Made by a program: the position numbers and the translations under genes
Shown here: positions 3,229-51,659 of the stretch, in pieces
How positions within the stretch are numbered: the first letter of the stretch is position 1
Layout: the number at the start of each line of letters is the position of its first letter
The notes under the pieces: model-generated
Told to the model about the DNA's origin: nothing
What the model saw: only the letters and a program-made list of their open reading frames with translations
Database searches by the model: none
From: an uncultured Gammaproteobacteria bacterium
GTDB taxonomy: Bacteria > Patescibacteriota > Microgenomatia > JAMCZE01
DNA: 64,000 bases
Assembly: GCA_964641255.1 (NCBI GenBank)
Contig: CAZXMM010000001.1
Location: 246,973-310,972, forward strand
Direction: 5' to 3'

Positions 3229-5571
3229 ATGAGCCTGCAGGATCTTGTGTCATCCGTTGCGGGAAAGTTTACTGCCCAGAAAAACACAGGCCGTGGCTAT
3301 TTAGCAGTTAAAATTTCCTCAACTTCAGTTTTATCAACGACATGGTCGGTGGCAGCTGGTGATGTTAAACTGGGGGCAGTAGCTTATGCTGCTCTAACCG
3401 ATGGTTCCTTTGAAAACCTTCTCCAAACGAGCGACAAAGCTGTCTCTGAATCCCTCTCTAATTCTAGTGTCGAAATTAGTCAGGTCGTGTTTGCGGTGCC
3501 TTTTCACTGGATTAGTGAAGGGAAAATTAGCTCAGTAAAGCTCAAGGATCTTAGGGCAATTTGTAAAGAGCTTGATCTTGTCCCCCTTGGGTATGTTTCT
3601 CTAACCGAGGCACTAGAGAGCTACTATAAAGAAGTAGAAGGGGCGCCGTTAACTGCTATTCTCGTAGGTATTGAGGGGCAAAATTCAACGCTGACAATTT
3701 ACCGAGCGGGTAAGCATTTGGGTACACATTTTTTGGGACTCACTGATTACCACGAGGATGTCTTACCGGAAGGCATTGAACGGGCTCTTAAAAAACTAAA
3801 TGTGGGAGATATTCTTCCCTCTCGGATCATTCTTTATGATGGAAAATCGGATCTAACAGCGGCTGTGGCAAAGGTAACTGCCTATCCTTGGACAGCTAAA
3901 CTACCGTTTCTACATTTTCCTAAGGTAGAAACGGCCTCAGCAGAATTTGTAGTTAAAGCTGTGGCTGTAGCAGGTGCCATGCAGCAGGGGGGAAGGTTTG
4001 TAGCTTTTGATCGAGATGGGGAATCGACTGTTGTTGATGTCCCTGTGGTTTCTGACACACCCCCTGTGGCCGCCAGTGCCTTTGAATCAGTAGAAGTTCC
4101 CTCCTTAAAACAAGTGCTTAAAGAACAGGAAGATGAACTGCTGGAAGTGTCTCCGGAGGAAGCGGGGTTTATGTCAGGTAGCGATCTTAATAATGTTATT
4201 GTTTCAGTCGCTTCACCGACTCCTCTGGCGACGACCTCTAGTTTTACTGAGTTTGCCCCACCGACCCCGAGTCCTAAGATTGCTGGGGAATATACAGCTA
4301 GTAATCATAAAGGAGGATTAAATCTTATGACGAGCTTGAGTGGACTTACCAAAAAAATACCATCATTCTCATTTAAAAAGAAAGCTCTCGACTCCGGAGC
4401 ACGAACGACGCCAGAGATTGGTGGTATCTCTAAGGGTAGAAAGTTCCCCCTCATTGCTTTCCCTATTATTTTTGTTGTGCTGCTCATCGGAGCTACCGGA
4501 GCTCTTGCATACTTTGTACCAAAAGCGGAAATTTTTGTCACTGTGGCGACCGAAAGCTTCTCTCATGATCTTGATGTTACAGTAGTTACGGATCGCGATT
4601 CTACATCTTCTGGCCAGATTCTATTGGGTAGTTACGTGACTACCAGCGAGGTCGGTAGTCGAAGAGCAGTAGCGACGGGAAACAAGCTGGTCGGTGATAG
4701 AGCTAAAGGCACTGTTACGATCTATAATTCAGCGTCGGCTCGGACTTTTCCGGCAGGAACAGTCCTGACGGGCAACGGTTTAAAATTTACTACTGATACC
4801 GAAGTAAGTGTAGCTTCCAGTTCTGGCATTGCTGACCAGATTACGGTGAAAGTGGGGGTGACCGCTGCTGATATTGGCGAAAAATACAATCTTCCCCCAG
4901 GAGTAACGTTCTCGGTTGGTTCCTTACCAACGAGTTCTTATCAAGGGAAAAATGAAGCGGCGTTAGCTGGGGGAAATAGTCACCAGGCAACTGTAGTTAC
5001 TAAAGGGGATCAGGATAGACTTCTTACTACCCTTTCGGGGGAACTGACGGAGCAAGCGCAAAAAGCTCTGGAAGCGAAGCTAGGGGCTAGCGATACCCTT
5101 CTTCCCAAAGCTATTACATCAGCGACAATCAAGAAGAAATTCACTCATGATATTGATGCCGAAGCAGATACCTTTGGTCTTGATTTGACTCTCGACTTTA
5201 AAGGGGTAACCTTTGCTAAGGACGATCTAGTCGAGCTCTTTAAACAAAATTTTCAATCAGCTATTGCAGAAGGGTTTGAACTCTCGAGCGACTCTGTCCA
5301 GTTTGAAGTCAAAGAAGCAAAAACTGACAAAGCCGGGAATATTGTTCTTAAGGTGCATCTTGATGGACAAATTGTCCCCAAGATCGCGGTTGAGCAAATT
5401 GTGACTGATTCTGCAGGAAAAAGCCTGGGCCAGGCAACTAGCTCCATTGCCAAGCTTCCTGGAGTAACTGGAGTTAGAGTAGAAATCAATCCTAAGATCG
5501 CCTCCCCCCTCGCCACTTTTGCGCTTCCCTGGAATAAAAAACACATTTCGGTAGATATTGTCAGAGAATAA
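3229..5571 (+). CDS. Hypothetical 780-aa membrane protein: N-terminal degenerate actin-like (PilM/FtsA-like) domain, central TM helix, large extracytoplasmic C-terminal domain
   Basis: N-terminal ~250 aa has phosphate-1/phosphate-2-like motifs of the actin/Hsp70 fold (YLAVKISSTSV...; AILVGIEGQNSTLTI); TM segment FPLIAFPIIFVVLLIGATGALAYFV around residue 420; Thr/Ser/Val-rich C-terminus; no LPXTG. Confidence 0.4.
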   Translation: MSLQDLVSSVAGKFTAQKNTGRGYLAVKISSTSVLSTTWSVAAGDVKLGAVAYAALTDGSFENLLQTSDKAVSESLSNSSVEISQVVFAVPFHWISEGKISSVKLKDLRAICKELDLVPLGYVSLTEALESYYKEVEGAPLTAILVGIEGQNSTLTIYRAGKHLGTHFLGLTDYHEDVLPEGIERALKKLNVGDILPSRIILYDGKSDLTAAVAKVTAYPWTAKLPFLHFPKVETASAEFVVKAVAVAGAMQQGGRFVAFDRDGESTVVDVPVVSDTPPVAASAFESVEVPSLKQVLKEQEDELLEVSPEEAGFMSGSDLNNVIVSVASPTPLATTSSFTEFAPPTPSPKIAGEYTASNHKGGLNLMTSLSGLTKKIPSFSFKKKALDSGARTTPEIGGISKGRKFPLIAFPIIFVVLLIGATGALAYFVPKAEIFVTVATESFSHDLDVTVVTDRDSTSSGQILLGSYVTTSEVGSRRAVATGNKLVGDRAKGTVTIYNSASARTFPAGTVLTGNGLKFTTDTEVSVASSSGIADQITVKVGVTAADIGEKYNLPPGVTFSVGSLPTSSYQGKNEAALAGGNSHQATVVTKGDQDRLLTTLSGELTEQAQKALEAKLGASDTLLPKAITSATIKKKFTHDIDAEADTFGLDLTLDFKGVTFAKDDLVELFKQNFQSAIAEGFELSSDSVQFEVKEAKTDKAGNIVLKVHLDGQIVPKIAVEQIVTDSAGKSLGQATSSIAKLPGVTGVRVEINPKIASPLATFALPWNKKHISVDIVRE

Positions 5572-12121: not shown

Positions 12122-12128
12122 TCTCACT

Positions 12129-12147
12129 CAAATCTCCCCCCTTGCAT
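12129..12147 (+). promoter_or_regulatory. 17-nt motif CAAATCTCCCCCCTTGC ending in a -35-like TTGCAT, upstream of rpoB; second copy upstream of tuf
   Basis: Exact 17-nt identity with 24720-24736; each is about 130-150 nt upstream of the ORF. Confidence 0.45.
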
Positions 12148-12221
12148 CCATTTAAACTTGTGTTAAACTTATTCTCAGCTCAATAGATTTTTTAGGCGTA
12201 CATATTGTGGGTACGCTTCTT

Positions 12222-12248
12222 ATTGTCGTGCAAAACGACAATGTTTTT
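12222..12248 (+). terminator. Perfect 8-bp hairpin (ATTGTCGT-gcaaa-ACGACAAT) plus GTTTTTG, 29 nt upstream of rpoB ATG; candidate attenuator
   Basis: Inverted repeat read directly; lies downstream of the putative promoter motif and upstream of rpoB. Confidence 0.5.
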
Positions 12249-12276
12249 GTACACCCTGCCAGCTAGACGTTACTGA

Positions 12277-15200
12277 ATGGCTAAACAAACTCAAAAATCA
12301 TCTGTTACTCCTCCTGCTTATAATGCGAAGCCGCGTTTGTATTGGGGTCGAACCTACCCGTCACTTCCGGAAATGGATTTTGTCTCCATCCAAAGAGAAT
12401 CCTACGAGCAGTTTCTTAAAGAAGGAATGCGTAGTCTCATTGACGAAGTGTCTCCTATTTCAGATTTTACTGGCAAAAACTGGGAGCTTACTCTAGGAGA
12501 ATATACTTTTGGTAAGCCCAAATATACGGCAGAGTCGTCTGAGCTGAAAGGCGTCACCTATGATATGCCGGTTCGCATCGAGGCTAGGCTTCTTAACAAA
12601 CAAACCGGCGAGGTGACGACTCAAGAAGTTTTCTTTGGCGAGCTTCCAGTAATGACTCCCCAGGGAACCTTTGTTATTAATGGTATTGAGCGGGTGGTCG
12701 TGAACCAACTCGTGCGCTCGGCCGGAGTATATTTTTTGGGCGATGTTGATACGGTATCGGGTCGATTACTCTATTTTGCCGAAATTCGGCCCTCCTTCAA
12801 GGGGAGCTGGTTAGAGTTTAATATTTCCCGTAATAATGTCATTTCGGTTCGGATTGACCGTCGTCGCAAGTTTCCTGTAACTACGTTTTTACGATCAATT
12901 GGTTATGGATCAGATGAGGAAATCAGAAAACTTTTTGCTGAAGTTGATACTGGGGCAGAATCTTTTATCGAGGCTACTCTCAAAAAAGACGTGACTCATG
13001 GGTCGTCTGAGGGAGCAATGGAGATTTACAAGAAAATGCGTCCTGGAGAGCCAGTGGTAGCCGAAACTGCCATGGCTTTTATTAACGATATGTTCTTTAA
13101 CCTCAGACGTTACAACTTGGGTAAAGTGGGTCGCTATAAGCTTAATAAACGTTTAAATTTGGACATCCCCAACACCCCGGAATTTGGGGTACTTCGTCCC
13201 GAAGATATTGTCGAAACGATCAAATATTTAATTCGTTTACAAAAGAATGACCCAAATGTTTACACTGATGATATTGATCATCTAGCAAACCGGCGGTTGC
13301 GTCGAGTTGGAGAATTAGTAGGGACAATTTCGTTCCGGCTGGGGCTGGCTCGATTAGAGAAAGCTGTAAAGGAGCGAATGAGTCTCCTCGATCCCAAAAC
13401 TCGGGTTATGCCCAATCAGGTGATCAATGCCCGTCCCCTTATTTCTGCAGTTAATGAATTTTTCCGGACTTCCCAATTATCTTCTATTCTTGATCAGACT
13501 AACCCTTTGTCAGAAGTTGATACTTTAAGAAAATTGACAGTAATGGGTATGGGAGGGATTTCTAGAGAACGGGCCAGTTTTTCCATTCGCGACATTAACG
13601 CTTCTCAGTACAGTCGTATCTGTCCAGTCCGCTCCCCTGAGGGGCCAAATATTGGACTGGTAACTTATATGAGTCTATACGCAAGAGTAGACGAATTTGG
13701 TTTTTTGCTTGCCCCTTACCGCAAGGTTCGTCACAGTGGTGACCAAGTACAGTTAACGGAAGAAATTGTTTATCTCTCAGCCGATGATGAGCGAGAATTG
13801 AGGATAACTCACGCTGGGGTCACCGTTGATGACCGGGGTTATATTTTGGATAAGCGCGTGCCGGTTCGTTTCCGAGACGACTTTTTAGAAGTAAGTATTG
13901 GGGAGGTCGATCTGATTGACGTATTGCCACGCCAGGTAGTGGGAACCGCCGCTGCACTTATTCCCTTCCTGCAACATGATGATGGTATTCGTGCTTTGAT
14001 GGCTGCCAATATGCAAGCTCAGGCAGTGCCATTAGTCAAAGCGGAAGCTCCGGTGGTAGGAACCGGTGTAGAAAAAGAAGTAGCCGGGGCGATGGGCTGG
14101 GTACTACGGGCTAGGCACGATGGCGAAGTTATTTTTAGTGATGGTTCAAAAGTAACTTTAAAACTAACTAAGACACCTGATAAGGAAGAGCAGAAACAAT
14201 CACAAAACCCCAATATCAAACTAACCGGAGGAACAGAGACCTATTTTACCACCAAGTTTAAAAGAACTAATCCCAATGGTTCGTGTTACAACCAACGGGT
14301 AGTTGTCAATGTAGGGGACAATATCAAAGCTGGAGATATTCTAATTGATGGACCAGCCGCTGTTGGTGGAGAACTCGCCCTTGGTATCAATCTTACCATT
14401 GCTTACGCTCATTTTGAGGGCTTTGGTTACGAAGATGCCATTATTATCTCTGAACGCCTGGTTCGCGAAGATCTCTTAACCAGCATCCACATTGAAGAAT
14501 ACGAGTGTGAAGTGGTTGATACTAAATTGGGGGTCGAGGAACTAACTCGAGATATTCCTAATGTAGGCGAGTCTGATTTGGCTATGCTCGATGAGGAGGG
14601 TATTGTTGTCGTGGGTGCAGAAGTCGGTCCTAACGACATTTTGGTAGGCAAGATTGCTCCCAAAGGCGAAACCGAACTGTCCGCAGAAGAGCGACTACTG
14701 CGAGCTATATTTGGAGAGAAGGCCAGAGAAGTTAGAGATACTTCGCTGCGGATGCCACACGGGGAGCGAGGAACAGTAATTGGGATCAATATTTTATCAA
14801 AGGCTAACGGGGACGAACTTACACCCGGAACAAACCAGTTGATTAAAGTTAAGGTGGCCCAAATGCGCAAAATTTCCGTCGGAGATAAGGTTAAAGGCCG
14901 CCACGGCAACAAAGGAGTCATTAGTCGAATTGTGGCTATGGCAGACATGCCCTATCTAGCCGATGGTCGACCAGTTGACATTATCATTTCTTCTTTGTCA
15001 GTCCTTAGCCGAATGAATTTAGGCCAACTGTTGGAAGCCCATCTTGGTTGGGCAATGACTGAGTTGACTGATAAGGTTACCGTGCCCGTATTTGAAAATA
15101 TAGCCGAAGAGTTAATTGCCGGTGCTCTTAGGAAAGCCAATCTGCCAATTGATGGCAAAGCTATAGTCTATGACGGTCGAACCGGTGAAGCCTTTGCTAA

Positions 15201-15762
15201 CCCAATCGTTGTGGGCACAACCTATATTCTCAAACTACATCACATGGTCGAGGATAAGACCCACGCTCGCTCGACTGGGCCTTATTCTTTGGTAACTCAG
15301 CAGCCCCTGGGTGGTAAAGCTCAAATGGGAGGTCAGCGCGTTGGAGAAATGGAAGTGTGGGCTCTTGAGGCCCACCGTGCTGCCTACACTCTGCAAGAAA
15401 TGTTGACCATTAAATCTGATGATGTAGTCGGAAGAGCTAAGGCTTTTGAAGCCATTGTCAAAGGTACGGATATTCCCCAGTCGACTATTCCAGAATCGTT
15501 TAAAGTTTTAGTTAAAGAGCTGCAGAGCCTCGGACTATCCATTAAACCCGTGGGTGTGATAACATCAGCCCAAGCAGCTGATGATACCGCTTCCCCAACA
15601 CCAACAGCGTCTAGCACTGATGACACAGTCCAAAAAGAAGTCGCCGAGTTGGAAAAGGTCTTGGATGCCGATGTTTTAGAGGCTACTGACAGCGAACTAC
15701 CTGCGGCGGGTATGGAAATCGAAACAACTGACGAGGTTAAAGTAGAGAGCAAAGACGAGTAA
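12277..15762 (+). CDS. rpoB: DNA-directed RNA polymerase beta subunit
   Basis: 1161 aa; RpoB-like sequence throughout, typical length. Confidence 0.97.
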   Translation: MAKQTQKSSVTPPAYNAKPRLYWGRTYPSLPEMDFVSIQRESYEQFLKEGMRSLIDEVSPISDFTGKNWELTLGEYTFGKPKYTAESSELKGVTYDMPVRIEARLLNKQTGEVTTQEVFFGELPVMTPQGTFVINGIERVVVNQLVRSAGVYFLGDVDTVSGRLLYFAEIRPSFKGSWLEFNISRNNVISVRIDRRRKFPVTTFLRSIGYGSDEEIRKLFAEVDTGAESFIEATLKKDVTHGSSEGAMEIYKKMRPGEPVVAETAMAFINDMFFNLRRYNLGKVGRYKLNKRLNLDIPNTPEFGVLRPEDIVETIKYLIRLQKNDPNVYTDDIDHLANRRLRRVGELVGTISFRLGLARLEKAVKERMSLLDPKTRVMPNQVINARPLISAVNEFFRTSQLSSILDQTNPLSEVDTLRKLTVMGMGGISRERASFSIRDINASQYSRICPVRSPEGPNIGLVTYMSLYARVDEFGFLLAPYRKVRHSGDQVQLTEEIVYLSADDERELRITHAGVTVDDRGYILDKRVPVRFRDDFLEVSIGEVDLIDVLPRQVVGTAAALIPFLQHDDGIRALMAANMQAQAVPLVKAEAPVVGTGVEKEVAGAMGWVLRARHDGEVIFSDGSKVTLKLTKTPDKEEQKQSQNPNIKLTGGTETYFTTKFKRTNPNGSCYNQRVVVNVGDNIKAGDILIDGPAAVGGELALGINLTIAYAHFEGFGYEDAIIISERLVREDLLTSIHIEEYECEVVDTKLGVEELTRDIPNVGESDLAMLDEEGIVVVGAEVGPNDILVGKIAPKGETELSAEERLLRAIFGEKAREVRDTSLRMPHGERGTVIGINILSKANGDELTPGTNQLIKVKVAQMRKISVGDKVKGRHGNKGVISRIVAMADMPYLADGRPVDIIISSLSVLSRMNLGQLLEAHLGWAMTELTDKVTVPVFENIAEELIAGALRKANLPIDGKAIVYDGRTGEAFANPIVVGTTYILKLHHMVEDKTHARSTGPYSLVTQQPLGGKAQMGGQRVGEMEVWALEAHRAAYTLQEMLTIKSDDVVGRAKAFEAIVKGTDIPQSTIPESFKVLVKELQSLGLSIKPVGVITSAQAADDTASPTPTASSTDDTVQKEVAELEKVLDADVLEATDSELPAAGMEIETTDEVKVESKDE

Positions 15763-15765
15763 GCT

Positions 15766-18700
15766 ATGCAAAAACCACAAGACAACATCGCTCATATTGT
15801 TGACTTTAAGGGTCTTAAGGTTTCTCTGGCTTCGGCGGCCGAAATGCTGTCTTGGTCTCATGGAGAGGTTACTAAGCCGGAGACAATCAATTACCGGACC
15901 CTAAAACCAGAAAAAGACGGGTTGTTCTCTGAAAACATCTTCGGTCCAACCAAAGACTGGGAGTGTTATTGTGGCAAATATAAACGGATTCGCTACCGTG
16001 GCATTATTTGTGACAAATGTGGGGTTGAGGTGACTCAATCAAAAGTTCGCCGTGAGCGGATGGGACACATTACGTTGGCTGTTCCAGTAGTTCATGTCTG
16101 GTATTTTAAAGGAGCGCCGTCAAAAATTTCTCTTTTATTAGATATTCCTCCCCGGGCCTTAGAAAATGTCATCTATTTTGCTTCTTATCTAGTTCTGGGG
16201 GTCAATGAGAACGAACGAGATACAGTAGTAAGCAATTTAAAGAAGACCATGGAAGAGCGTCAAAAAGCGCTAGAAGCGGCTTTTAACGAGAAAATTACTG
16301 AGGAGAAAAAAGTAGCTCTAGAAAAGGAAACGGAACAAAAAGCCAAGGTCCATCACGACAAAGCCCAGTTTGACCTGATTCTCAGTGAGATTGAGTTGTC
16401 CCGAAAACAAAAAATCGCCAAACTCGAAGAAGAATATGCTCTTGAGAAAAATCGTTTGGGTGAGATTTATCGTGCTCTTTCCGATTTGGTTAAAAGTGTT
16501 AAACCCCTCGCCCAGCTTACTGAAGAAGAATATCTCAAGCTGGATGAGTATGGAGCTGCTCAATTTTTGCAGGTGGGTATGGGAGCCGAAGCAGTCTTAG
16601 AAGCTCTCAAACTTATTAATTTAGACAAGATGGCGGCAGAATTACGTGAAGAACTAGTTGATGCTAGCACCCAACGCCGGGTGAAGGCCATTAAGCAGTT
16701 ACGTATTGTTGATGGGCTAAGAAAAGCCAACATTCGTCCCGAGTGGATGGTTCTTGAGATTCTACCAGTAATTCCCCCAGATCTAAGACCGATGGTGCAG
16801 CTTTCTGGAGGCAGATTCGCCACTTCCGACCTTAACGATTTGTATCGTCGAGTCATTAATCGTAATAATCGTCTGAAGCATCTTATCGACTTGGGAGCTC
16901 CAGAAATTATTCTGCGTAACGAAAAGCGAATGCTCCAGGAGGCAGTCGATTCTCTAATCGATACCGCTCAAAGACCAAGTACTCGCTCTAATGCCGCTGA
17001 ATTAAAAAGTCTATCTGAGATGCTACGTGGTAAGCAAGGACGTTTCCGCCAAAATCTTCTCGGCAAACGGGTTGACTATTCTGGTCGGTCAGTTATTGTC
17101 GCTGGTCCTCACTTAAGACTAAATCAATGCGGTATTCCCAAGGAGATGGCTCTGGAAATGTTCAAACCCTTTGTACTACGGGAGCTAATCGTTCGGGGCT
17201 TCGCTCCCAATGTCAGATCGGCTAAATACATTTTGGATCGGCGCACTCCGGAAGTTTTTGATATTTTGGAAGAAATTACCAAAAATCATCCCGTACTTCT
17301 CAATCGGGCGCCCACTCTTCATAAACTAAGTATTCAAGCCTTTTATCCAATTCTTATTGAAGGGTCCGCTATTCAGGTTCACCCCCTCGTGTGCAGTGGT
17401 TTTAACGCTGATTTTGACGGTGATCAAATGGCGGTTCACGTACCGCTAAGCAGCGCTGCTCGAGCTGAGGCCGCTAATCTTATGATGGCCGAACACAACC
17501 TTCTTAAACCCTCAGATGGGTCGCCAGTTGGGTTGCCTAATAAAGAGATGATTCTAGGACTCTATTTCTTCACCTCTATCGATGAGCGTCTTACACCCCC
17601 ACCCACCATTTTTGCTGACTTTTCTGAGGCCGTTGTAGCTTATCAAGAGAGAAAGATTCAATTGCGACAGGTGATTAAGATCATGATTGGAAAGAATATT
17701 GTCGAGACCACGGTGGGTCGGGTTTTACTCAACGAATTTATTCCCACTCAACTTGGCTTTATCAACGAAACCATTAATTCTAGTAGGATCAAGTCTCTCA
17801 TGTCTCGGGCGATGGATTTGTGCTCAAGAGAAGAAGTAGCCACTCTTCTTGATAATGTTAAAGCGGTGGGTTTCCAAGGAGCCACTATTTCTGGAGTCTC
17901 GGTCGGAATGTTTGATTTAGTCATGATTGGCAATAAGGGGGAGATGATCGGCGAAGCGGAGTTACAGGCTACTGAAATTGAGGAAAATTATCGATCGGGA
18001 CTAATTACTGCTGAGGAAATGCACCGTCTCCAAAATGATGTCTGGATGGACGCTACGGACGAAATTGCTGAACTCACTTGGAATGCTTATACCAAAGATA
18101 ATCCCGTTAAGGTGATTTTGGAAGCAGGAGCCGGACGATCTAGTCGAGATAATCTTAAGCAGATCTCGGGTATGCGGGGGTTGATGGTTGATCCTATGGG
18201 TCGGCTGATTCCGATGCCGACCAAATCCAATTTCCGCCAGGGACTAAATGTTTTTGAATACATCACTGGAACGCGAGGCACACGCAAGTCTCTTGCTGAT
18301 ACGGCTCTACGCACCGCCGATGCTGGCTATCTGACTCGTCGTCTCGTCGATGTGTCTCATGACGCGATTATCCGCATGGTTGATTGTGGTACCAAGCAGG
18401 GTATTGAAATTTCTCGCGAAGAACACCGTCAAGCCACTTTTGCGCAGCGAATTTTGGGTCGTTTTCTGGCTGCAGATGTCAAAGATAACAAGCGGGTTAT
18501 AGCGAGGGCGGGGGACAATATTGATGAATTGGTTTTAGCAGAAATCGAAGCTGCTAAAGTAGCTAGTGTATTTGTTAGGTCACCACTTACCTGCCAAGCC
18601 CATTATGGTCTATGCCAAACTTGCTATGGTCGCGATATTGCTACTCGGGTTTTAGTCGAACTTGGTACACCAGTTGGTGTCATCGCCGCGCAATCAATTG

Positions 18701-19497
18701 GAGAGCAAGGGATTCAGCTGACTTTACGTACTAAACACTCGGGCGGGATTGTCGTTGCTCAGGATGTAACTCAGGGTTTACCTCGGGTTGAGGAGCTCTT
18801 TGAAGCGCGGTCTCCCAAGATTCTTTCGCCGATTGCCGAGATCGCCGGTAAAGTAGAGGTGGCCGAAATGGTCGACGGCTTTAAGGTCAGAGTTCGTACG
18901 ACCACCAAACCAGTTGAAGAACGGGAATATTTAATTCCCTTAACCGCTCAGTTAAAGGTCAGTGATGGTGACTTGGTGGTCGCTGGAACGCAACTGTCGA
19001 CCGGGTCCCTAGATCTTAAAGACGTCCTAGCGGTGCGGGGATTAGCTGGTGCTCAGCGCTATCTCATTGATCAGCTGCAGGAGGTGTATGAATCACAGGG
19101 AATTGGTATCAACGACAAGCACTTTGAAACCATTGTGAGAAAGATGTCTGACAAGGTCAGAATTGAGACCTCGGGTGATACGATTTTCCTTCCCGGCGAA
19201 TTTATTGATCGCACTAGATTTGAGGATGAGAATGCTAGGGTGTTGGCTGCCGGAGGAGAGCCATCCTCTGCCGAACTGACTATTTTGGGCGTAACTAGAG
19301 CCTCACTCTATACTCCTTCGTGGTTATCGGCGGCTTCGTTCGAACGGGTGACTCAAGTCTTAACGGATGCCGCTCTTCGTGGAGCTGAAGATTCATTGCT
19401 AGGGTTAAAAGAAAATGTTATTATTGGGCGCCTTATCCCCACCTCTGCTGAACGAGCCAGGTTGGAGGGTAATGAGCCAGTAGTTCTAGAAGCCTAA
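15766..19497 (+). CDS. rpoC: DNA-directed RNA polymerase beta-prime subunit
   Basis: 1243 aa; NADFDGDQMAVH catalytic motif; zinc-binding Cys near the N-terminus. Confidence 0.97.
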   Translation: MQKPQDNIAHIVDFKGLKVSLASAAEMLSWSHGEVTKPETINYRTLKPEKDGLFSENIFGPTKDWECYCGKYKRIRYRGIICDKCGVEVTQSKVRRERMGHITLAVPVVHVWYFKGAPSKISLLLDIPPRALENVIYFASYLVLGVNENERDTVVSNLKKTMEERQKALEAAFNEKITEEKKVALEKETEQKAKVHHDKAQFDLILSEIELSRKQKIAKLEEEYALEKNRLGEIYRALSDLVKSVKPLAQLTEEEYLKLDEYGAAQFLQVGMGAEAVLEALKLINLDKMAAELREELVDASTQRRVKAIKQLRIVDGLRKANIRPEWMVLEILPVIPPDLRPMVQLSGGRFATSDLNDLYRRVINRNNRLKHLIDLGAPEIILRNEKRMLQEAVDSLIDTAQRPSTRSNAAELKSLSEMLRGKQGRFRQNLLGKRVDYSGRSVIVAGPHLRLNQCGIPKEMALEMFKPFVLRELIVRGFAPNVRSAKYILDRRTPEVFDILEEITKNHPVLLNRAPTLHKLSIQAFYPILIEGSAIQVHPLVCSGFNADFDGDQMAVHVPLSSAARAEAANLMMAEHNLLKPSDGSPVGLPNKEMILGLYFFTSIDERLTPPPTIFADFSEAVVAYQERKIQLRQVIKIMIGKNIVETTVGRVLLNEFIPTQLGFINETINSSRIKSLMSRAMDLCSREEVATLLDNVKAVGFQGATISGVSVGMFDLVMIGNKGEMIGEAELQATEIEENYRSGLITAEEMHRLQNDVWMDATDEIAELTWNAYTKDNPVKVILEAGAGRSSRDNLKQISGMRGLMVDPMGRLIPMPTKSNFRQGLNVFEYITGTRGTRKSLADTALRTADAGYLTRRLVDVSHDAIIRMVDCGTKQGIEISREEHRQATFAQRILGRFLAADVKDNKRVIARAGDNIDELVLAEIEAAKVASVFVRSPLTCQAHYGLCQTCYGRDIATRVLVELGTPVGVIAAQSIGEQGIQLTLRTKHSGGIVVAQDVTQGLPRVEELFEARSPKILSPIAEIAGKVEVAEMVDGFKVRVRTTTKPVEEREYLIPLTAQLKVSDGDLVVAGTQLSTGSLDLKDVLAVRGLAGAQRYLIDQLQEVYESQGIGINDKHFETIVRKMSDKVRIETSGDTIFLPGEFIDRTRFEDENARVLAAGGEPSSAELTILGVTRASLYTPSWLSAASFERVTQVLTDAALRGAEDSLLGLKENVIIGRLIPTSAERARLEGNEPVVLEA

Positions 19498-20451: not shown

Positions 20452-20961
20452 TTAGTCTGTCTTCGCCAGCCACTCCTTAGTAGCCTCAAGACATAATTCT
20501 AAACGGTGGGGAAAATCCTTGTCGGTTAAGTGAATATCAATTGTGTCTTTATGATTAGCCACAAACTTATTGTGGTCGACAATCCAGTCGTCAAGGTATT
20601 GAAACTGATCATATTTTTTGGCTTTCCAGATTTTCACTAACAGTTCTTTAGTAAAATCTAAGCTAATGACAAAGTGCCGGTAGCCAAACTTCTTAAGATT
20701 TTCTTTAGTTTCCGACCAATTACGATCAACACTGATATCTAAGATAAAGCTGCGACTAGAGTTAAGGAGCGCACTAATTCGGGTGTGAGCTCGGCTGTGG
20801 GTTTCCTCCTCGCTGCTAACTAGTAAATCTTCTTTGACCTCGGTACGAATAGCATCTTTATTAAAGATAGGTAGGTTTAGTTGGCAACTCAAGTACGTGG
20901 CAATGGGGGTTTTGGAACTGCCAGGCGGACCAGCAAAAGTGATGCAAAATTTATTTTTCAT
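20452..20961 (-). CDS. Small P-loop NTPase, nucleoside/nucleotide kinase-like (zeta-toxin/AAA_33-like fold), substrate unknown
   Basis: Walker A FAGPPGSSKT; Walker B-like hhhD (FILDIS); 169 aa; encoded antisense, inserted between rpsG and fusA. Confidence 0.5.
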   Translation of the reverse strand: MKNKFCITFAGPPGSSKTPIATYLSCQLNLPIFNKDAIRTEVKEDLLVSSEEETHSRAHTRISALLNSSRSFILDISVDRNWSETKENLKKFGYRHFVISLDFTKELLVKIWKAKKYDQFQYLDDWIVDHNKFVANHKDTIDIHLTDKDFPHRLELCLEATKEWLAKTD

Positions 20962-20976
20962 TTATACTTGTTTTAG

Positions 20977-22536
20977 ATGAAATATCTAACTGCACTTTTC
21001 TTTCCTGCGGCAATTTTACTTTTTTTTACCCTGTCTTTCCACACGGTGACTGACTTTAGTCAAGATTTGGGAAGACATTTACTGATTGGGAAAATAATTA
21101 GAGCTACTGGGGCGATCCCCCAGACTAATTTGCTCTCTTTTACCCACCCCAATTTTCCCTTCACCAATAGTCATTGGTTAGCCGAGGTTGTCTTTTATCT
21201 GCTTAGTAGTCCTCTAAATCTTTTAGGACTCAAGGTAATTATTTTTGTGAGTGCAATGACGCTGACACTTATGACTGCCTGGCAATATTCCAAAAGTCTG
21301 CTAGCAACGGCAGTAGCTTTTTGCCTTCTTGTGCCAGTGCTTTTGGAGCGGACCGATATTCGACCAGAAATATTTTCCTTTCTTTTTGTAGCGGTTTTTA
21401 TGCACCTCTTACTACTTAATAGGACTAAGCTTCTTTTCCTTTTGCCACTTATCGAAATTATTTGGGTCAATACCCACATCTATTTTATTTTAGGGCCAAT
21501 CCTCTGTTTGATCTTTTTTCAAAAGAAATACTGGTATGTTACCTTCCTTACCTGTTTAGCCACAGTGGTTAACCCGAATTTTTTAACCGGAGCGCTGTTC
21601 CCAATTTTCGTGCTGCAAAATTATGGCTACTCGATTGTGGAGAACCAGCAAATTTTCTTTTTACAGCAAGTCACCAGCAACCCAAACATTTGGTACTTTG
21701 AAACAGCCGTGGTTGGCTTAGTGTTAAGCAGCCTTTTTGTGGAATTAAAAAAAATTACGTACCATCACCTCTTACTGGGAGGGTTAATCATTCTCCCTAT
21801 AATCGCCATTCGTAACTTTCCCTTATTTTTTCTCCTGGAACTACCCTTGTTTGCATATATTCTCGCCCACTCTGCTTTACCACTCCGAAGATATGAGAAA
21901 TTTATTTTTTGCTTGGTTCTGGCCCTAACCTTACTTCGGGCTGGCCGGCTTTGGACCAACCAATACTACTTAAGCATCGATTCGGCAAAGCGCTTTGGCT
22001 TCTTCGTCGAAGAGCCCGGAAAAAAAGCTCTAGATTTTATTACTGATCATAAGCTTTTGGGACCGATCCTTAATAATTTTGACATGGGTAGCTATATTGC
22101 CTACCGCTTGTATCCGAGAGAGAAAGTTTTTGTAGATGGCCGACCGGAGGCCTATCCCAAAGAATTTTTCCAAGAAGTCTATATTCCACTCCAGCAAAGC
22201 CCAGAGAATTTTGCTGTGGCTAAGGAACACTTTAAATTTTCTACCATTATTTTTTCCCACCGTGATGGTACCCCTTGGGCGCAACAGTTTCTCTCTTTTA
22301 TTGTTGCCGATCCCGATTTTCGCCTAGTCTATCTCGATAGCTACGCGGTGGTATTTGCTAAAGATACCAATCTCAAAACGGTGGACCCTGATAGTTTATT
22401 AGCAACTAGTGTTAACTATCTAGATAGTTACTATTTGGCTCGTGTGGCTGCAATTTTTGGCTGGGAAGAAATATCGACCAAGCTGGCGGCTCAGTCAATT
22501 AGTAATCGACCAACTAGATCACTGGTTTTTTTCTAG
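20977..22536 (+). CDS. Polytopic membrane protein with C-terminal soluble domain, GT-C-like glycosyltransferase candidate
   Basis: 519 aa; about 12 TM segments in the first ~330 aa, then a hydrophilic domain. Confidence 0.45.
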   Translation: MKYLTALFFPAAILLFFTLSFHTVTDFSQDLGRHLLIGKIIRATGAIPQTNLLSFTHPNFPFTNSHWLAEVVFYLLSSPLNLLGLKVIIFVSAMTLTLMTAWQYSKSLLATAVAFCLLVPVLLERTDIRPEIFSFLFVAVFMHLLLLNRTKLLFLLPLIEIIWVNTHIYFILGPILCLIFFQKKYWYVTFLTCLATVVNPNFLTGALFPIFVLQNYGYSIVENQQIFFLQQVTSNPNIWYFETAVVGLVLSSLFVELKKITYHHLLLGGLIILPIIAIRNFPLFFLLELPLFAYILAHSALPLRRYEKFIFCLVLALTLLRAGRLWTNQYYLSIDSAKRFGFFVEEPGKKALDFITDHKLLGPILNNFDMGSYIAYRLYPREKVFVDGRPEAYPKEFFQEVYIPLQQSPENFAVAKEHFKFSTIIFSHRDGTPWAQQFLSFIVADPDFRLVYLDSYAVVFAKDTNLKTVDPDSLLATSVNYLDSYYLARVAAIFGWEEISTKLAAQSISNRPTRSLVFF

Positions 22537-22559
22537 TCCTTTCTAGTATAATGGGGTGC

Positions 22560-22585
22560 GTGCCGAAAATCGGCACTCGTTTTTT
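22560..22585 (+). terminator. Hairpin GTGCCG-aaaat-CGGCAC plus TCGTTTTTT, 25 nt upstream of fusA; terminator of the upstream gene and/or fusA leader attenuator
   Basis: Inverted repeat plus T-run; preceded by TATAAT at 22547-22552. Confidence 0.5.
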
Positions 22586-22610
22586 GCAATGATTCCAACA
22601 ATAGAATTTT

Positions 22611-24710: not shown

Positions 24711-24732
24711 TTCTATCACCAAATCTCCCCCC

Positions 24733-24762
24733 TTGCTAAAGAGAGTAAGCACAGTTTATAAT
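24733..24762 (+). promoter_or_regulatory. Sigma70-like promoter for tuf: -35 TTGCTA, 18-nt spacer, -10 TATAAT
   Basis: Hexamers read directly; the -35 is the 3' end of the repeated CAAATCTCCCCCCTTGC motif. Confidence 0.55.
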
Positions 24763-24858
24763 CATTACTAGCCTTACATCGAGGCAGGTCTTTTTTGCCA
24801 AAAAGGCAATCTAGGGAGCAAGAGTTAATTACTTAATTTTTATTAATCTAAAAACAAT

Positions 24859-26046: not shown

Positions 26047-26065
26047 GGATTAGAGCCTTATTTAC

Positions 26066-26092
26066 ACGCCCCGAAAACTTCGGGGCGTTTTT
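26066..26092 (+). terminator. Rho-independent terminator after tuf (ACGCCCCG-aaaactt-CGGGGCGT plus TTTTT)
   Basis: 8-bp GC-rich stem plus U-tract, 20 nt after the tuf stop; only ~40 nt before rpsJ, so rpsJ is probably expressed by read-through. Confidence 0.8.
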
Positions 26093-26132
26093 AGACACTA
26101 AAGCTGTTGGGGACTTTAGTTAATTTAAAAAA

Positions 26133-26583: not shown

Positions 26584-27687
26584 ATGGAGAGCAAGCATCA
26601 CTACGTTTTAATCATGGCGGGGGGATCAGGAACGAGACTGTATCCTAAATCTCGGGAGAATGCTCCAAAACATCTTTCAAAAATTGTTGGAGACCAGACT
26701 CTTCTTCAACAAACCTTTAAAAGAGTCTCCCAAATAGTCTCAGTAGAAAATATCTATATCTCCACCAATTACAAATACGTTAATCAAATTCTCGAGCAAG
26801 TACCGAAGTTAAAAAAACATCAACTTATTTGTGAACCTGAAAAGAGAAATACCGCCCCAGCGTTAGCTCTAGGAACAAGTGTTATTGCAAGAAGTGACCC
26901 TAAGGCTGTTATTGCTGCAATCTCTTGTGACCACTATGTCCTTAAAGAAAAAAATTTTGTCAATGCGTTTAAACTAGCCTTAGCAGTAATTGAGTCCCAC
27001 CCGGATCGCATTCTAGTACTGGGAATTGAACCAAGCTCCCCCCACACTGGGTACGAATATATTGAGAAAGATGGAATCTTTTGGAAAAAAAATCAAGATC
27101 ACGTTTTTAATGTTAAGCGCTTTGTTGAACGCCCTGCGCATAGGGATATTGCTCAAAAATTTATTGATCAAGGTTACTTATGGAATGCGGGTTATTTCAT
27201 TTTTAGTGCCGAGTGTTTTATGAGTAAGATTAAAGAATTTTTACCAGAAGTCCATGCCGGGTTAGAAGCTATTACTGTCGCTGCAGAGAAAAAAAATTAC
27301 GAGGACGTGCTCAAGGAAGAGTTTTTGAAGTTTTCTGATGCCCAGATTGATAAGGCGGTAATGACTAAAATTGATAATTTAGTCGTGTTACCTGCTGATC
27401 TTGGCTGGTGCGATGTAGGCTCTTGGGATGTGGTCCGGAGTTTAATCGAAGAAAAGAAAAAAGATGAAAACAGCAATTATGCCGATGAAGAATTTATCGC
27501 GGTTGACTCCCACAATGTTACTGTTTTAGGCGATAATAAAGGACAGCTAGTAGCAACCATTGGATTGAGTAATATTACTATCATAAATACAGGAGATGCC
27601 ATTGTGGTAATGGAAAACGGCCGAGGACAGGAAGTTAAAAAGATCGTTGATGAAATTAAAAAAAGAAAGCTAGATTTTCTCTTATAA
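26584..27687 (+). CDS. manC: NDP-sugar pyrophosphorylase, mannose-1-phosphate guanylyltransferase-like
   Basis: LIMAGGSGTRLYPKSR nucleotidyltransferase motif; 367 aa with no C-terminal isomerase domain. Confidence 0.75.
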   Translation: MESKHHYVLIMAGGSGTRLYPKSRENAPKHLSKIVGDQTLLQQTFKRVSQIVSVENIYISTNYKYVNQILEQVPKLKKHQLICEPEKRNTAPALALGTSVIARSDPKAVIAAISCDHYVLKEKNFVNAFKLALAVIESHPDRILVLGIEPSSPHTGYEYIEKDGIFWKKNQDHVFNVKRFVERPAHRDIAQKFIDQGYLWNAGYFIFSAECFMSKIKEFLPEVHAGLEAITVAAEKKNYEDVLKEEFLKFSDAQIDKAVMTKIDNLVVLPADLGWCDVGSWDVVRSLIEEKKKDENSNYADEEFIAVDSHNVTVLGDNKGQLVATIGLSNITIINTGDAIVVMENGRGQEVKKIVDEIKKRKLDFLL

Positions 27688-27692
27688 AGATT

Positions 27693-29051
27693 ATGATTGT
27701 TGACCAAAGTATTTTTAAGGCTTACGACATTCGGGGGATCTATCCCGAGCAAATTAACGCTGAAATGGCCTATGCTATTGGACAGGGATACGCTAGTTAT
27801 GTTAAACCCACGAAACCTGTGGCAGTAGGCTACGATGTTCGCCTTCATTCTCACGAGCTTCAAAAAGAGGTAATCAGGGGATTGATTGACGCTGGTGTCA
27901 GCGTCATTGATGTTGGACTTATCTCAACAGAAATGGTTTATTTTGCTGTGGGCCATTTTGGTTTTGGCGGAGGAATACAGGTTACTGCTTCTCACAATCC
28001 CAAAGAATGGCACGGAATGAAATTCGTCAGAGAGAGTGTTATTCCCCTTTCTGGTGATAATGGAATCAAAGAAATTAAAGAGTTTGTTTTAAAAGGAGAG
28101 AGGATAGTTCTAGGAAAGAAAGGGACTGTAGAGCACCAAAATATTTTGGGAGACTTTTGTAATTATTTGCTCACCTGGATTGATCCAAAGAAACTAAAGC
28201 CGCTAACCATTGTCTATAATCCTAACTTTGGCTTTGCAGGTAAAGTTTTGGAACAACTAGTGGGACTCGGTAAACTTCCTGCAGCAATGATTCCCTTAAA
28301 CGCTGAACCTGATGGAAACTTTCCCAAAGGTAGGCCAGACCCTTTTATCCCAGAAAATAGAGTGGAATTTGCAGCATTAGTAAAAGAGAAGAAAGCCGAC
28401 TTGGGAGTAACATGGGATGCTGATGCTGACCGAGTATTTTTTTGCAGCGATGGAGGAACTTTTATTGAACCATATTTTACTAACGCGATCCTAATCAAGG
28501 CGCTTCTTGCGAAGTATCCAGGAGAAAAGGTTCTATACGATCCCCGCTATGCCTGGGCCCTAATAGATGCTACAGCTGCAGCCGGGGGAAGTTCCTACCT
28601 TGATCGGGTAGGCTATGTTTACATCAAAAGACGGATGCGCCAAGACAATATGGTTTTTTCCGGCGAGTCTAGTGGGCATACCTATTTTCGAGATTTTTGG
28701 TTTTCAGACTCGGGGATGATCCCACTGCTTTTGGTTTGGGAATTGCTGTCGGTAGAAAATAAGACACTCTCACAGTTGGTTAAACCTATTATGCAAAAAT
28801 ATTTTATTTCTGGCGAATTAAATTTTAAGACCGATAAAAAGACAGAAATTATGGCCGAACTCGAAAAAGCCTATTCCAGCACAAAAATTGATCATACAGA
28901 TGGAATTACGCTCGAAAGTACCGACTGGCGAGCTAATGTGCGGGCTTCCAATACCGAGCCTCTCCTGCGATTAAATGTAGAGGCAAGATCCCAAGTAAAA
29001 ATGGAGGAGAAACGTGACGAATTAGTTAGTTTTATCAATCAGAAATCCTAA
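27693..29051 (+). CDS. manB: Phosphomannomutase/phosphoglucomutase
   Basis: Active-site TASHNP; GVTWDADADR metal-binding loop; 452 aa. Confidence 0.8.
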   Translation: MIVDQSIFKAYDIRGIYPEQINAEMAYAIGQGYASYVKPTKPVAVGYDVRLHSHELQKEVIRGLIDAGVSVIDVGLISTEMVYFAVGHFGFGGGIQVTASHNPKEWHGMKFVRESVIPLSGDNGIKEIKEFVLKGERIVLGKKGTVEHQNILGDFCNYLLTWIDPKKLKPLTIVYNPNFGFAGKVLEQLVGLGKLPAAMIPLNAEPDGNFPKGRPDPFIPENRVEFAALVKEKKADLGVTWDADADRVFFCSDGGTFIEPYFTNAILIKALLAKYPGEKVLYDPRYAWALIDATAAAGGSSYLDRVGYVYIKRRMRQDNMVFSGESSGHTYFRDFWFSDSGMIPLLLVWELLSVENKTLSQLVKPIMQKYFISGELNFKTDKKTEIMAELEKAYSSTKIDHTDGITLESTDWRANVRASNTEPLLRLNVEARSQVKMEEKRDELVSFINQKS

Positions 29052-29061
29052 ACGCCAGCTC

Positions 29062-29091
29062 TTGCTTTTGCGCTTGCCTCGATGGTACAAT
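29062..29091 (+). promoter_or_regulatory. Sigma70-like promoter for the rplC-led operon: -35 TTGCTT, 18-nt spacer, extended -10 TGgTACAAT
   Basis: Hexamers read directly, downstream of the manB stop. Confidence 0.5.
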
Positions 29092-29147
29092 ACGCAGGAA
29101 TGCTAGAGTTCTCTAAACTCACTATAGCGTAGTTGGATGTAGAGAGA

Positions 29148-29186
29148 CTTTTACCTTGTAAAAGTCCCGTATCCGGGACTTTTTTT
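29148..29186 (+). promoter_or_regulatory. Leader attenuator candidate: two mutually exclusive hairpins, the second an intrinsic terminator 20 nt upstream of rplC
   Basis: Hairpin A is CTTTTAC-ctt-GTAAAAG (29148-29164); hairpin B is AAGTCCCG-tatc-CGGGACTT plus TTTTTTTG (29162-29186); the arms overlap at 29162-29164. Confidence 0.5.
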
Positions 29187-29206
29187 GTGCTTAACCGAGC
29201 TCAACT

Positions 29207-38121: not shown

Positions 38122-39141
38122 ATGAAGATTCTCCAAATTCCCCCATCTTACCGTCTTTCCAAGACCGCTATCCGATTGCTCTCGGAGATTGAGTCTAATA
38201 GTGCCGTTATCAGTGAAATTTCTCTTCCTCTCGAAGTAGAAAGAAATATTCGTCGTCAATCAGTATTAGGCAGTGCTTTGTTCTCAGCTCGTATAGAAGG
38301 AAACACCCTGACGAGAGCCGAGGTAGAAAATTTCACTAAGCTACCTAGAAAAGATCAGCAACAGGTTGAAGTGGAAAATCTTAGTCGGGTAATAGAGAGA
38401 ATTCTATCTCAATGGGCTAATCCCAACAAGAAAATAACCAAGACGGATCTTTTGGATTGGCAGGGGCAGGCGATGCGAAACATTTTGGATACAGAATTCT
38501 CAAGTAGCTTTAGAACTGGCCATGAAGGACTTTTTGATAGAGCCGGGACTCTTTATTATCATGCTCCCCCGCCAGCCTACATCCCCGCTCTTGTTGACGA
38601 GTTACTCCTCTTTGTAAATAGTAAAAAAGAAAAACTCGTTCCCGTTCGAGCTATTCTTGCCCATTTAGTCTTTGAAAAGATTCACCCTTTTGTTGATGGT
38701 AATGGTCGGGTAGGAAGACTTTTACAGCTCGCGATATTAACTAGGGGTGGCTATGCGATGAAAGGACTGGCAGTTATCGAAGAGGAAATTGAGAAACAGC
38801 GCCAGTTATACTACAGAGCTATTGAACGGAGCAATAATTCTGATGCGACCCCCTTTGTTATGCTAATGCTTGAGCTTATTCGTGACGCCTCCCTAAAAGC
38901 AAAGAAGACTCTTCTTGCCAAGAAAAATAATCCTTCCCAACTTGATGTCTTATCTCCCAGGCGTCAAGAGATTGTCCAAATGGTTTACGACCAACGACTT
39001 ATCTCGTTTGATTCTATTCATAGACGTTTTATCAGGATGAGTTCTCGGCAAATTGCCTACGATCTGGAGTTCTTAATAAAACGTGGCTATCTCACCAAGG
39101 TTGGCACTACCCGGGGAGCTCTCTATGCTCCAAAAGAATAA
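38122..39141 (+). CDS. fic: Fic-family adenylyltransferase (AMPylase), class II (internal inhibitory helix), with C-terminal winged-HTH-like domain
   Basis: Canonical Fic motif HPFVDGNGRVGR; inhibitory motif (S/T)xxxE(G/N) = SARIEGN about 140 aa upstream; C-terminal ~70 aa wHTH-like. Confidence 0.85.
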   Translation: MKILQIPPSYRLSKTAIRLLSEIESNSAVISEISLPLEVERNIRRQSVLGSALFSARIEGNTLTRAEVENFTKLPRKDQQQVEVENLSRVIERILSQWANPNKKITKTDLLDWQGQAMRNILDTEFSSSFRTGHEGLFDRAGTLYYHAPPPAYIPALVDELLLFVNSKKEKLVPVRAILAHLVFEKIHPFVDGNGRVGRLLQLAILTRGGYAMKGLAVIEEEIEKQRQLYYRAIERSNNSDATPFVMLMLELIRDASLKAKKTLLAKKNNPSQLDVLSPRRQEIVQMVYDQRLISFDSIHRRFIRMSSRQIAYDLEFLIKRGYLTKVGTTRGALYAPKE

Positions 39142-43667: not shown

Positions 43668-43728
43668 CGTTAACTTTTTAAAAAAACCAGACGGCCTTTT
43701 TTTAAAGAGTTAAGCAAGAAAGAATTAT

Positions 43729-49953: not shown

Positions 49954-50107
49954 AATAATCACTAGAAACATTATTATATTTTTAATTTTTTCGCAGGTAA
50001 ATGAGAAATTATCGTGAAGGATTTCTAGGCTACGTGATCCAGCTCCCCAGCTAGTGCTCGGGTAGTTTTTCCTTCTCTTTTTCCCACTTCTCTGCAGACT
50101 GACTCAT

Positions 50108-51646: not shown

Positions 51647-51659
51647 TTTTTAAAACCCT

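Follow-up and report, generated by a model that had tools for sequence, protein, structure and literature searches.

Why are the genes for RNA polymerase, elongation factors and ribosomal proteins (r-proteins) in a compact bacterial genome preceded, only tens of nucleotides (nt) before their start codons, by hairpins that end in runs of T, and could such hairpins regulate the genes that follow? The question is raised by a 64,000-nt stretch of an uncultured bacterium (GenBank assembly GCA_964641255.1, contig CAZXMM010000001.1, positions 246,973 to 310,972; hereafter "the window", numbered from its first letter), which belongs to the Microgenomates group of the candidate phyla radiation (CPR)/Patescibacteria, its best RpoC match standing at 74% and the next, in metagenome-assembled genomes of Woesebacteria, Curtissbacteria and Levybacteria, at about 60%. 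A preliminary description had reported one such hairpin ahead of rpoB and others before fusA, rplC and rpsJ, and had suggested that they imply attenuation or processive antitermination. Comparison with related loci (given below by L numbers) points to two conserved, unannotated and undescribed leader RNA elements: one before rpoB, with a first hairpin (H1) and terminator-like hairpins, and one before rplC, with a putative sensor, antiterminator and terminator. We think it somewhat probable, at roughly 55%, that H1 and a second hairpin, H2, act as a partial-terminator attenuator in the rpoB leader, that the rplC site works on the same principle in clearer form, and that the hairpins at fusA and at tuf/rpsJ are different elements.

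Tandem hairpins in the rpoB leader

The rpoB coding sequence (12277..15762; from the open reading frame list and tblastn matches to relatives) lies on the forward strand, as do all features below unless stated; rpoC (15766-19497) follows directly, and the upstream gene encodes a NUDIX hydrolase, not rplL. The rpoB promoter reads TTGCAT-16-TGtTAAACT (12142-12169), comprising a C-rich element with the -35 hexamer TTGCAT (12129..12147; hexamer 12142-12147) and an extended -10 element, TGtTAAACT (12161..12169; hexamer 12164-12169), that is conserved in relatives; transcription is predicted to start at about 12176. Two tandem hairpins follow, where the preliminary description had a single one. H1, GGCGTAC-ATATTGTGG-GTACGC(T) (12195..12217), is conserved in both sequence and structure and is followed by the U-rich TTCTTATTG. 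H2 begins 4 nt past H1 and is the perfect inverted repeat described earlier, ATTGTCGT (12222-12229)-gcaaa-ACGACAAT (12235-12242) with GTTTTTG (12243-12249), so that the element as a whole spans 12222-12249. It does lie within the rpoB leader, 3' of CAAATCTCCCCCCTTGCAT, a motif previously called promoter-like that proves to be the -35 region of the promoter conserved in relatives. H2 is terminator-like, with a folding free energy (dG) of -9.6 kcal/mol, a stem of 8-9 base pairs (bp), a 5-nt loop, and a G and then T5 after the stem; its 5' arm corresponds to a conserved TTGTCGT element.

The close comparison covered six metagenomic relatives with 63-81% RpoB identity, whose leaders align in blocks at fixed spacing: CTTG of the -35 element, invariant in all six, then an extended -10 of the TGTTAAACT type, a spacer resembling TAATAGATTT, and the hairpin. 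Among L081-L087 the -10 element reads TGTTAAACT, TGTTAGACT, TGCTAAGAT or TATAAT, 16-18 nt past the -35. H1, with the consensus GGCG[T/A]AC-ATATTGTRG-GT[A/T]CGC and one compensatory exchange between U:A and A:U, stands ahead of rpoB in 12 lineages, where 92.7% of alignment cells are paired, compared with 31-49% in slid controls; neither its pairing percentage nor its covariation score was reached by any of 500 shuffles. A covariance model of H1 (R1) matched exclusively rpoB-upstream sites in 0.8 Mb. A second hairpin occurs 4-7 nt past H1 in 7 of the 11 H1-bearing leaders, in most cases with a T-rich run after it, and its arms are of the UUGUCGU type in the window's clade and of the CCCGC type in Woesebacteria. 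These unrelated arms in two sublineages, together with the compensatory pair in H1, suggest that selection acts on structure rather than on sequence. In L086, L087, L002 and L011, a T-tract follows H1 itself directly.

To count such sites uniformly, we used a strict definition—a hairpin with dG <= -6, at least 6 pairs, and a T-rich tail within 3 nt. By this definition, 20 of 24 Microgenomates relatives have a hairpin and T-tract in the 200 nt that precede rpoB, in most cases with its end 20-70 nt from the ATG, and weaker hairpins were seen by eye in L014, L016 and L030. The control gene rpsL, directly after rpoC, had almost none (~0/30); the other counts were 10/12 for rplC, 1/13 for rpsJ, 6/24 for fusA, and 6/16 for tuf. 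Conservation among relatives, proposed earlier as a check on the hairpins, is therefore evident for rpoB and rplC across the Microgenomates but not for fusA or the tuf-rpsJ gap. Other genes at the same loci give a background of 5-8% (7 of 84 co-directional and 3 of 57 divergent gaps); the total of just 10 in 141 speaks against the genome-wide habit of placing partial terminators before genes that had been proposed. With the same gene calls, rpoB scores 15/22 against this 10/141 (Fisher p = 6e-10, odds ratio ~28, in a test that ignores relatedness).

Some of these hairpins stand where no upstream gene could need them. The upstream neighbour is a divergent alaS in L017, L021 and L030 (Pfam-confirmed) and another minus-strand open reading frame in L013, L018 and L020; despite this, L017, L021, L013 and L018 have a sense-strand hairpin and T-tract 37-72 nt before the rpoB ATG, and L030 has a bulged hairpin. 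With divergent neighbours only, the comparison is 4/7 for rpoB versus 3/57 for other genes. In these relatives the hairpin and T-tract sit 3' of a canonical TTGACA-N17-TGaTATAAA promoter, and canonical TTGACA-17-TATAAT promoters likewise lie 5' of the rpoB hairpins of more distant relatives. Since the hairpin is kept beside a divergent neighbour, it is not merely the upstream gene's terminator. Among rpoC-related loci of Actinobacteria and other outgroups we saw no proximal hairpin and T-tract before rpoB; a few other CPR (L050, L055) do have one.

There is precedent for an attenuator at this position. As the preliminary description had noted for E. coli, partial terminators lie upstream of rpoB—tL7 in E. 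coli and P26 in P. aeruginosa—and lower RNA polymerase activity leads to less termination there and hence to more rpoBC expression (PMC4324240). The window shares with them a Rho-independent terminator-like hairpin just 5' of rpoB and, by analogy, may share the proposed buffering of rpoBC expression. The likeness is one of position and proposed role rather than of demonstrated sequence relationship: whereas tL7 and P26 lie between rplL and rpoB, within rplKAJL-rpoBC, and are transcribed from the rplJ/rplK promoters, rpoB in the window follows the NUDIX gene (an MltG-like gene, divergent alaS, or others in relatives), has its own conserved promoter, and carries the extra conserved hairpin H1.

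Attenuation at rpoB is thus the reading best supported by position, conservation, terminator signature and precedent. The rpoB-rpoC transcript would begin some 100 nt 5' of the ATG (-35 at 12142, -10 at 12164), and H1 would form first, followed by H2 and its UUUUU. Together with their U-rich tails the hairpins would act as a partial intrinsic terminator at which some polymerases stop before rpoB, the stopped fraction depending on RNA polymerase elongation or on a factor that recognises H1, and RNA polymerase synthesis would thereby come under homeostatic feedback. We infer the partial, polymerase-responsive character of termination at H2 from its weak stem and the analogy with tL7/P26. The same hairpins might also block read-in from upstream, because the NUDIX gene is followed by no other terminator.

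Several points weigh against this reading. The whole rpoB leader folds no better than shuffled sequence (z = -1.26), and H2 is weak, with only 3 G-C pairs among its 8-9 bp and a 5-U tract flanked by G. It is missing in L086 and L087, and its equivalent in L081/L082 has no T-tract. The Woesebacteria-type rpoB hairpins, like those of fusA and tuf, start at about the predicted transcription start, which fits mRNA stabilisation equally well. Covariation in H1 and in the rplC stems described below amounts to one or two compensatory positions, and the sequences are related, so that the Fisher and shuffle statistics overstate independence. Finally, a conserved antiterminator pairing was looked for in the rpoB leader and none was found; regulated, as opposed to constitutive, attenuation at rpoB is for this reason unsupported.

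The candidates considered and rejected were two antiterminator pairings that are not kept in relatives (a 5-bp pairing between the loop of H1, AUAUUGUGG, and the 3' arm of H2; and one of GGCGUACA with UGUACACC past the U-tract) and two leader peptides, one from an ATG at 12241 that is not conserved and one in a TTG frame from 12207 that is open in the window, L081 and L083 and, by eye, closed by TAG or TAA in L085, L086 and L087.

Other features of the region are recorded here in their own right. The C-rich tract CAAATCTCCCCCCTTGC directly 5' of the -35 belongs to a 17-nt identity between the rpoB (12129-12147) and tuf (24720-24738) promoters—the tuf copy, at 24720, being followed by TTGCTA-18-TATAAT—and promoters of rpoB, tuf and rplC throughout the clade (L013, L021, L024, L087, L162, L163, L166, L167) show it in the form CCCYTTGMMW; the tract may represent an extended -35 or a UP-like promoter element. 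A motif resembling CCTGCC(T)A(C)C is found 3' of the T-tract and 5' of the rpoB start, both in the window (12253-12265) and in the Levybacteria-type L017, L018, L020, L021 and L027, and is absent from the window's closest relatives. On the 5' side of rpoB, a gene whose product ends in ..EHNQNV.KYL adjoins in L085 (the clearest case) and in the Woesebacteria-type L006 and L008-L011 and lies nearby in L081 and L086; judged by eye from translations, it looks like MltG/YceG, and it may be the ancestral rpoB neighbour that NUDIX replaced in the window.

A putative terminator/antiterminator switch before rplC

The rplC site is the strongest attenuator case, with what appears to be a conserved terminator/antiterminator switch. 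A promoter read from the sequence as TTGCTT-18-TGgTACAAT (29062..29091) has equivalents in L161-L170 (TTGC..-TGnTACAAT/TAGAAT/TAAAAT). It is followed by a conserved two-stem domain (29110..29145), in which stem P1 pairs 29110-29115 with 29140-29145, stem P2 pairs 29120-29124 with 29130-29135 (one bulged T), and the internal loops are AACU and GAUG. Next comes an antiterminator hairpin, GACTTTTAC-ctt-GTAAAAGTC (29146..29166), which folds in the truncated transcript and overlaps the 5' arm of the terminator, and then the terminator itself, AAAAGTCCCG-tatc-CGGGACTTTT (29160-29183) followed by TTTG (29160..29186 with the TTT), 20 nt before the ATG at 29207. The terminator is stable (dG -13.3 kcal/mol; 10 bp, 5-6 of them G-C), with a T7 that overlaps the stem, and the whole leader folds better than shuffled sequence (z = -3.08).

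Through homologues of the window's L3 protein we reached nine distinct same-clade leaders, all built in one order: a TTGC..-TGnTACAAT-like promoter, AAUGYU, P1 (YCYCUA/UAGRG), the loops AACU/GAUG, P2 (CACUA../..UAGU[Y]G), a variable hairpin, a G-C-rich terminator, U6-7, GUGCU, and the ATG 4-30 nt further on. Their alignment has 36 invariant columns, and 93.4% of P1/P2 cells are paired, versus 24-56% when slid; covariation is slight, as the domain hardly varies. R2, a covariance model built on P1/P2, gave one match per locus, always upstream of rplC, and none elsewhere in 0.9 Mb; over the loci compared, R1 and R2 recovered only their training lineages. Beyond the clade, a hairpin and T-tract precede rplC in the 10 of 12 more distant Microgenomates already counted.

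When transcripts are truncated before the 3' arm of the terminator, its 5' arm pairs upstream in all nine leaders. These antiterminators range from -6.4 to -9.3 kcal/mol and beat at least 97.7% of shuffles in seven of the nine, that of the window reaching a dG of -8.6 against -2.1 for shuffles. The arms differ among leaders—GACUUUUAC/GUAAAAGUC in the window, GACUUUUAU/AUAAAAGUC in L164 (as DNA, GACTTTTAT/ATAAAAGTC), GACUC/GAGUC in L163 and L167, and GAUC/GAUC closed by GGG/CCC in L166. Because the extended antiterminator takes the GGG of the P1 3' strand in several leaders, sensor helix, antiterminator and terminator would stand in a classic three-way competition. Both marks of a switch-type attenuator, a conserved sensor domain and a mutually exclusive antiterminator, are thus found at rplC; at rpoB, H1 is conserved and would be a candidate sensor at most, and no overlapping antiterminator was found. 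We propose that the two-stem domain, probably an r-protein binding site, sets the choice between the antiterminator and the strong terminator; by precedent, L4 would be the likely ligand.

That precedent is the L4-mediated, NusA-dependent leader of the E. coli S10 operon, which likewise has a structured leader with a terminator and U-tract tens of nucleotides before a big r-protein operon containing rplC-rplD; a protein-binding domain 5' of the rplC terminator is a plausible further likeness. Unlike in E. coli, the element in the window precedes rplC rather than rpsJ, which lies 2.7 kb upstream beyond two sugar-nucleotide genes, and the leader has an explicit antiterminator alternative and no Rfam match. 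The intervening genes (26584-29051) encode a nucleotidyl transferase and a phosphomannomutase (PGM), and the insertion is kept in the clade (L162, L163, L164, L165, L167) as nucleotidyl transferase and phosphogluco/mannomutase genes, sometimes with NUDIX or toxin-antitoxin genes; it follows that rplC, not rpsJ, heads the large r-protein operon.

In a survey of r-protein leader candidates, conditional terminator formation is a listed mechanism, and the sole candidate upstream of rplC-rplD is archaeal (Archaeoglobi), with no CPR lineage represented (Eckert & Weinberg 2020, PMC7247131). The window element resembles such candidates as a conserved structure in the 5' untranslated region (5'-UTR) of r-protein genes, presumed to bind an encoded protein; it differs from the archaeal one in sequence and structure and matches no Rfam family at E <= 10. 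At that cut-off the rpoB and rplC leaders returned chance-level matches only, and an Rfam 15 scan of the whole window at the gathering threshold found one tRNA and nothing else. Mimicry of 23S rRNA was also considered: E. coli GAUGAGUAGGG (367-377) and CUAAAUACUC (426-435) loosely resemble strands of the domain, with alignment scores at chance level; R2 had no match in E. coli 23S rRNA, and the topologies are not obviously alike.

The fusA, tuf and rpsJ leaders

A hairpin and T-tract do occur at each of the other positions reported earlier; the "same architecture" ascribed to them does not hold, since these are unrelated elements with differing promoter positions, and the attenuation reading, which suits rpoB and rplC, fits fusA and tuf/rpsJ less well than other explanations.

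At fusA (ATG 22611), the hairpin GTGCCGA-aaa-TCGGCAC (22560-22576) is followed by TCGTTTTTTG (22560..22586 in all); its 7 bp include 5 G-C (dG -9.9 kcal/mol), its T6 is offset by 3 nt (TCG), and it begins 24 nt past the stop codon of an upstream 519-aa open reading frame. A -10 hexamer TATAAT lies just 5' of it (22547..22552), with a weak -35. The window, L162 and L163 share GTATAAT, 6-7 nt, GTGCCG-AAA..-CGGCAC and a T-run, the stem being conserved and the loops variable; at this distance, GTATAAT would put the hairpin right at the 5' terminus of the transcript. It is missing in most relatives, including those with fusA directly after rpsG. We suggest that it forms the 5' terminus and doubles as the terminator of the upstream unit.

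The tuf leader (24733..24797) has a promoter, TTGCTA-18-TATAAT, and a 4-bp hairpin GCCT..AGGC (24771-24785), then TCTTTTTTG. This arrangement, a promoter-proximal hairpin with T6G, is kept in L162, L163 and L167, with one compensatory change to ACCT..AGGT, and many Microgenomates tuf leaders have a similar promoter-proximal hairpin and T-tract. By the predicted start sites, the fusA and tuf hairpins, which begin about 6-9 nt past conserved -10 hexamers, and some rpoB hairpins start within a few nucleotides of the transcript's 5' end. Stabilising stem-loops at the 5' terminus are known from the E. coli ompA and B. subtilis aprE leaders, where no U-tract follows; the window hairpins would share their position if the predicted starts are right, and differ in having a U-tract.

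Between tuf and rpsJ stands the hairpin (A)CGCCCCGAA-aac-TTCGGGGCG(T) (26066-26088) with TTTTAG (terminator 26066..26092; without the outer A and T, the stem-loop is 26067-26087 and the tail TTTTTAG), which has 9-10 bp, 7 of them G-C, a T5, and a dG of -15.5 kcal/mol; the rpsJ ATG is at 26133. Lying 20 nt past the tuf stop codon, it does double as the tuf terminator, as had been proposed, and we regard it as probably a standard operon terminator with some leakage. Members of the close clade (L162, L163, L164, L167, L169, L170) keep it, as does 1 of 13 more distant relatives; in most Microgenomates tuf and rpsJ are 14-45 nt apart with no terminator. A promoter follows the terminator in L163 and L167. 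None was seen between it and rpsJ in the window, where rpsJ for that reason probably depends on read-through. A further small hairpin, ACTAAAG-ctgttgggga-CTTTAGT (26097..26120), shares the loop (C)UGUUGGGR, with differing stems, with L162, L164, L165, L169 and L170 (by eye), 10-25 nt before the start, and may be an S10 leader element. In L163 and L167, the 5' end of the rpsJ leader after its own promoter has a boxA-like GCTCTTTGACA instead.

Scanned strictly on both strands, the window as a whole yielded 30 terminator-like sites at dG <= -8, of which 4 are intergenic—exactly the rpoB, fusA, rpsJ and rplC sites. With intergenic DNA making up 5.6% of the window (about 94% is coding), about 1.7 would be expected, so that the count taken alone is weak evidence; comparative conservation makes the stronger case against chance. 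A laxer scan detects three of the four, missing the tuf/rpsJ hairpin because its extended stem consumes one T, and also marks many hairpins within coding sequence. All four have the stem of an intrinsic terminator (at least 5 bp with G-C, loop 3-8 nt), and those at rpoB, rplC and tuf/rpsJ also have a U-tract of 5 nt or more that starts no further than 2 nt from the stem; the tract at fusA is marginal.

Elsewhere in the window, the gap that separates rpsD from rpoA contains an AT-rich palindrome with a T7 run (43670-43712, fold dG -14), at about 25 nt from the start codon of rpoA (43729); it is another terminator-like element ahead of an RNA polymerase subunit gene. An imperfect hairpin with TTTTTCC (50029-50072) precedes the RNase Y gene (ATG 50108) by about 35 nt, and a 10-bp hairpin over the RNase Y stop codon (51616-51652), followed by TAGTTTTTAA, ends 8 nt before a PEGA/SH3 gene (ATG 51660). 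Shine-Dalgarno-like motifs are all but absent from the 20 nt ahead of start codons in the window, where the sequence is A/U-rich instead (12247-12276, 24829-24858, 29177-29206); AGGAGG does precede tuf in some related Microgenomates. The str/S10 cluster is interrupted by extra genes: two open reading frames without a Pfam match between rpsG and fusA (169 aa, 20452-20961, minus strand; 519 aa, 20977-22536, plus strand), the sugar-nucleotide genes before rplC, and a Fic-domain gene between rplO and secY (38122-39141), in the same place in L165. A 780-aa protein (3229-5571) has a weak Baseplate_J-like match.

Competing explanations and significance

The hairpins could be ordinary operon-end terminators in a very compact genome, closing the NUDIX operon, the 519-aa open reading frame, tuf and PGM, with any downstream effect being incidental read-through. 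At every site in the window the upstream gene runs in the same direction, and from its stop codon to the hairpin no other terminator intervenes; the terminator at tuf is of textbook form, and 94% of the window is coding. The hairpin over the RNase Y stop codon, so close to an unrelated gene, also shows that hairpins near start codons are not peculiar to translation genes. On the other hand, conserved promoters lie between the upstream stop and the hairpin at rpoB, rplC, fusA and tuf, the rpoB hairpin survives next to divergent genes, only 7 of 84 other co-directional gaps contain a hairpin, and the rplC terminator is tied to a conserved antiterminator. We consider this explanation unlikely.

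Equally unlikely, in our judgement, is that the hairpins are non-terminating 5'-UTR elements that protect mRNA from 5'-end-dependent decay and that, with their U-rich tails, may aid ribosome loading where Shine-Dalgarno motifs are lacking. Such a role would suit the fusA, tuf and Woesebacteria-type rpoB hairpins, which begin 6-9 nt past the -10 element at the predicted start, as well as the presence of an RNase Y gene and the scarcity of Shine-Dalgarno motifs; the tuf hairpin, with 4 bp and a spacer before its T-tract, would in any case be a poor terminator. However, a run of T5-8 placed 0-2 nt past a G-C stem in about 20 of 24 rpoB and 10 of 12 rplC leaders is a terminator signature unneeded for stabilising, H2 and the rplC terminator of the window lie 45-90 nt from the predicted start, and an antiterminator at rplC would be pointless unless the terminator does stop transcription.

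A more ambitious proposal would extend attenuation to the entire transcription-translation apparatus of this clade, which lacks Shine-Dalgarno sequences. Lineage-specific promoter-proximal terminators at rpoBC, fusA, tuf, rpsJ, the rplC operon and perhaps rpoA would sense polymerase performance or nucleoside triphosphate supply, H1 would be bound by the polymerase or by an elongation factor, the rplC domain would serve as an r-protein sensor, and attenuation-based growth-rate control would stand in for the mechanisms of model bacteria. We regard this as speculative, and a little less likely than either alternative above.

Much less probable still is processive antitermination, of the NusB/S10-boxA kind or by a specialised NusG, overriding terminators across the supercluster from rpoB to the r-protein genes, as the preliminary description had envisaged as one option. 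Several strong terminators do stand ahead of essential genes that need expression, and L163 and L167 have the boxA-like sequence in their rpsJ leaders, but no sense-strand boxA match with <=3 mismatches was found in the five window leaders (12122-12276, 22537-22610, 24711-24858, 26047-26132, 29052-29206), the leaders have no common sequence element except the T-tract, and each unit has its own promoter. Chance inverted repeats in AT-rich spacers, for which the modest intergenic count (4 against ~1.7), the rpoB leader's fold z of only -1.26 and the many lax-scan hairpins inside coding sequence might be cited, can practically be dismissed, being already contradicted by comparative data—a position kept in tens of relatives with different sequences, an approximately 28-fold enrichment over other genes (odds ratio), and compensatory changes.

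Gene regulation in CPR/Patescibacteria is almost unstudied, and we found no paper on terminators or r-protein leaders in these bacteria in the literature. Leader attenuation as a mechanism is already well known, which makes the advance incremental rather than conceptual. If our reading of the rpoB and rplC leaders is correct, they would offer defined RNAs on which to test protein binding and transcription in vitro and would aid in defining the transcription units of genomes known only from metagenomes, and attenuation feedback on RNA polymerase and ribosomal proteins would reach into a deep-branching lineage with reduced genomes.

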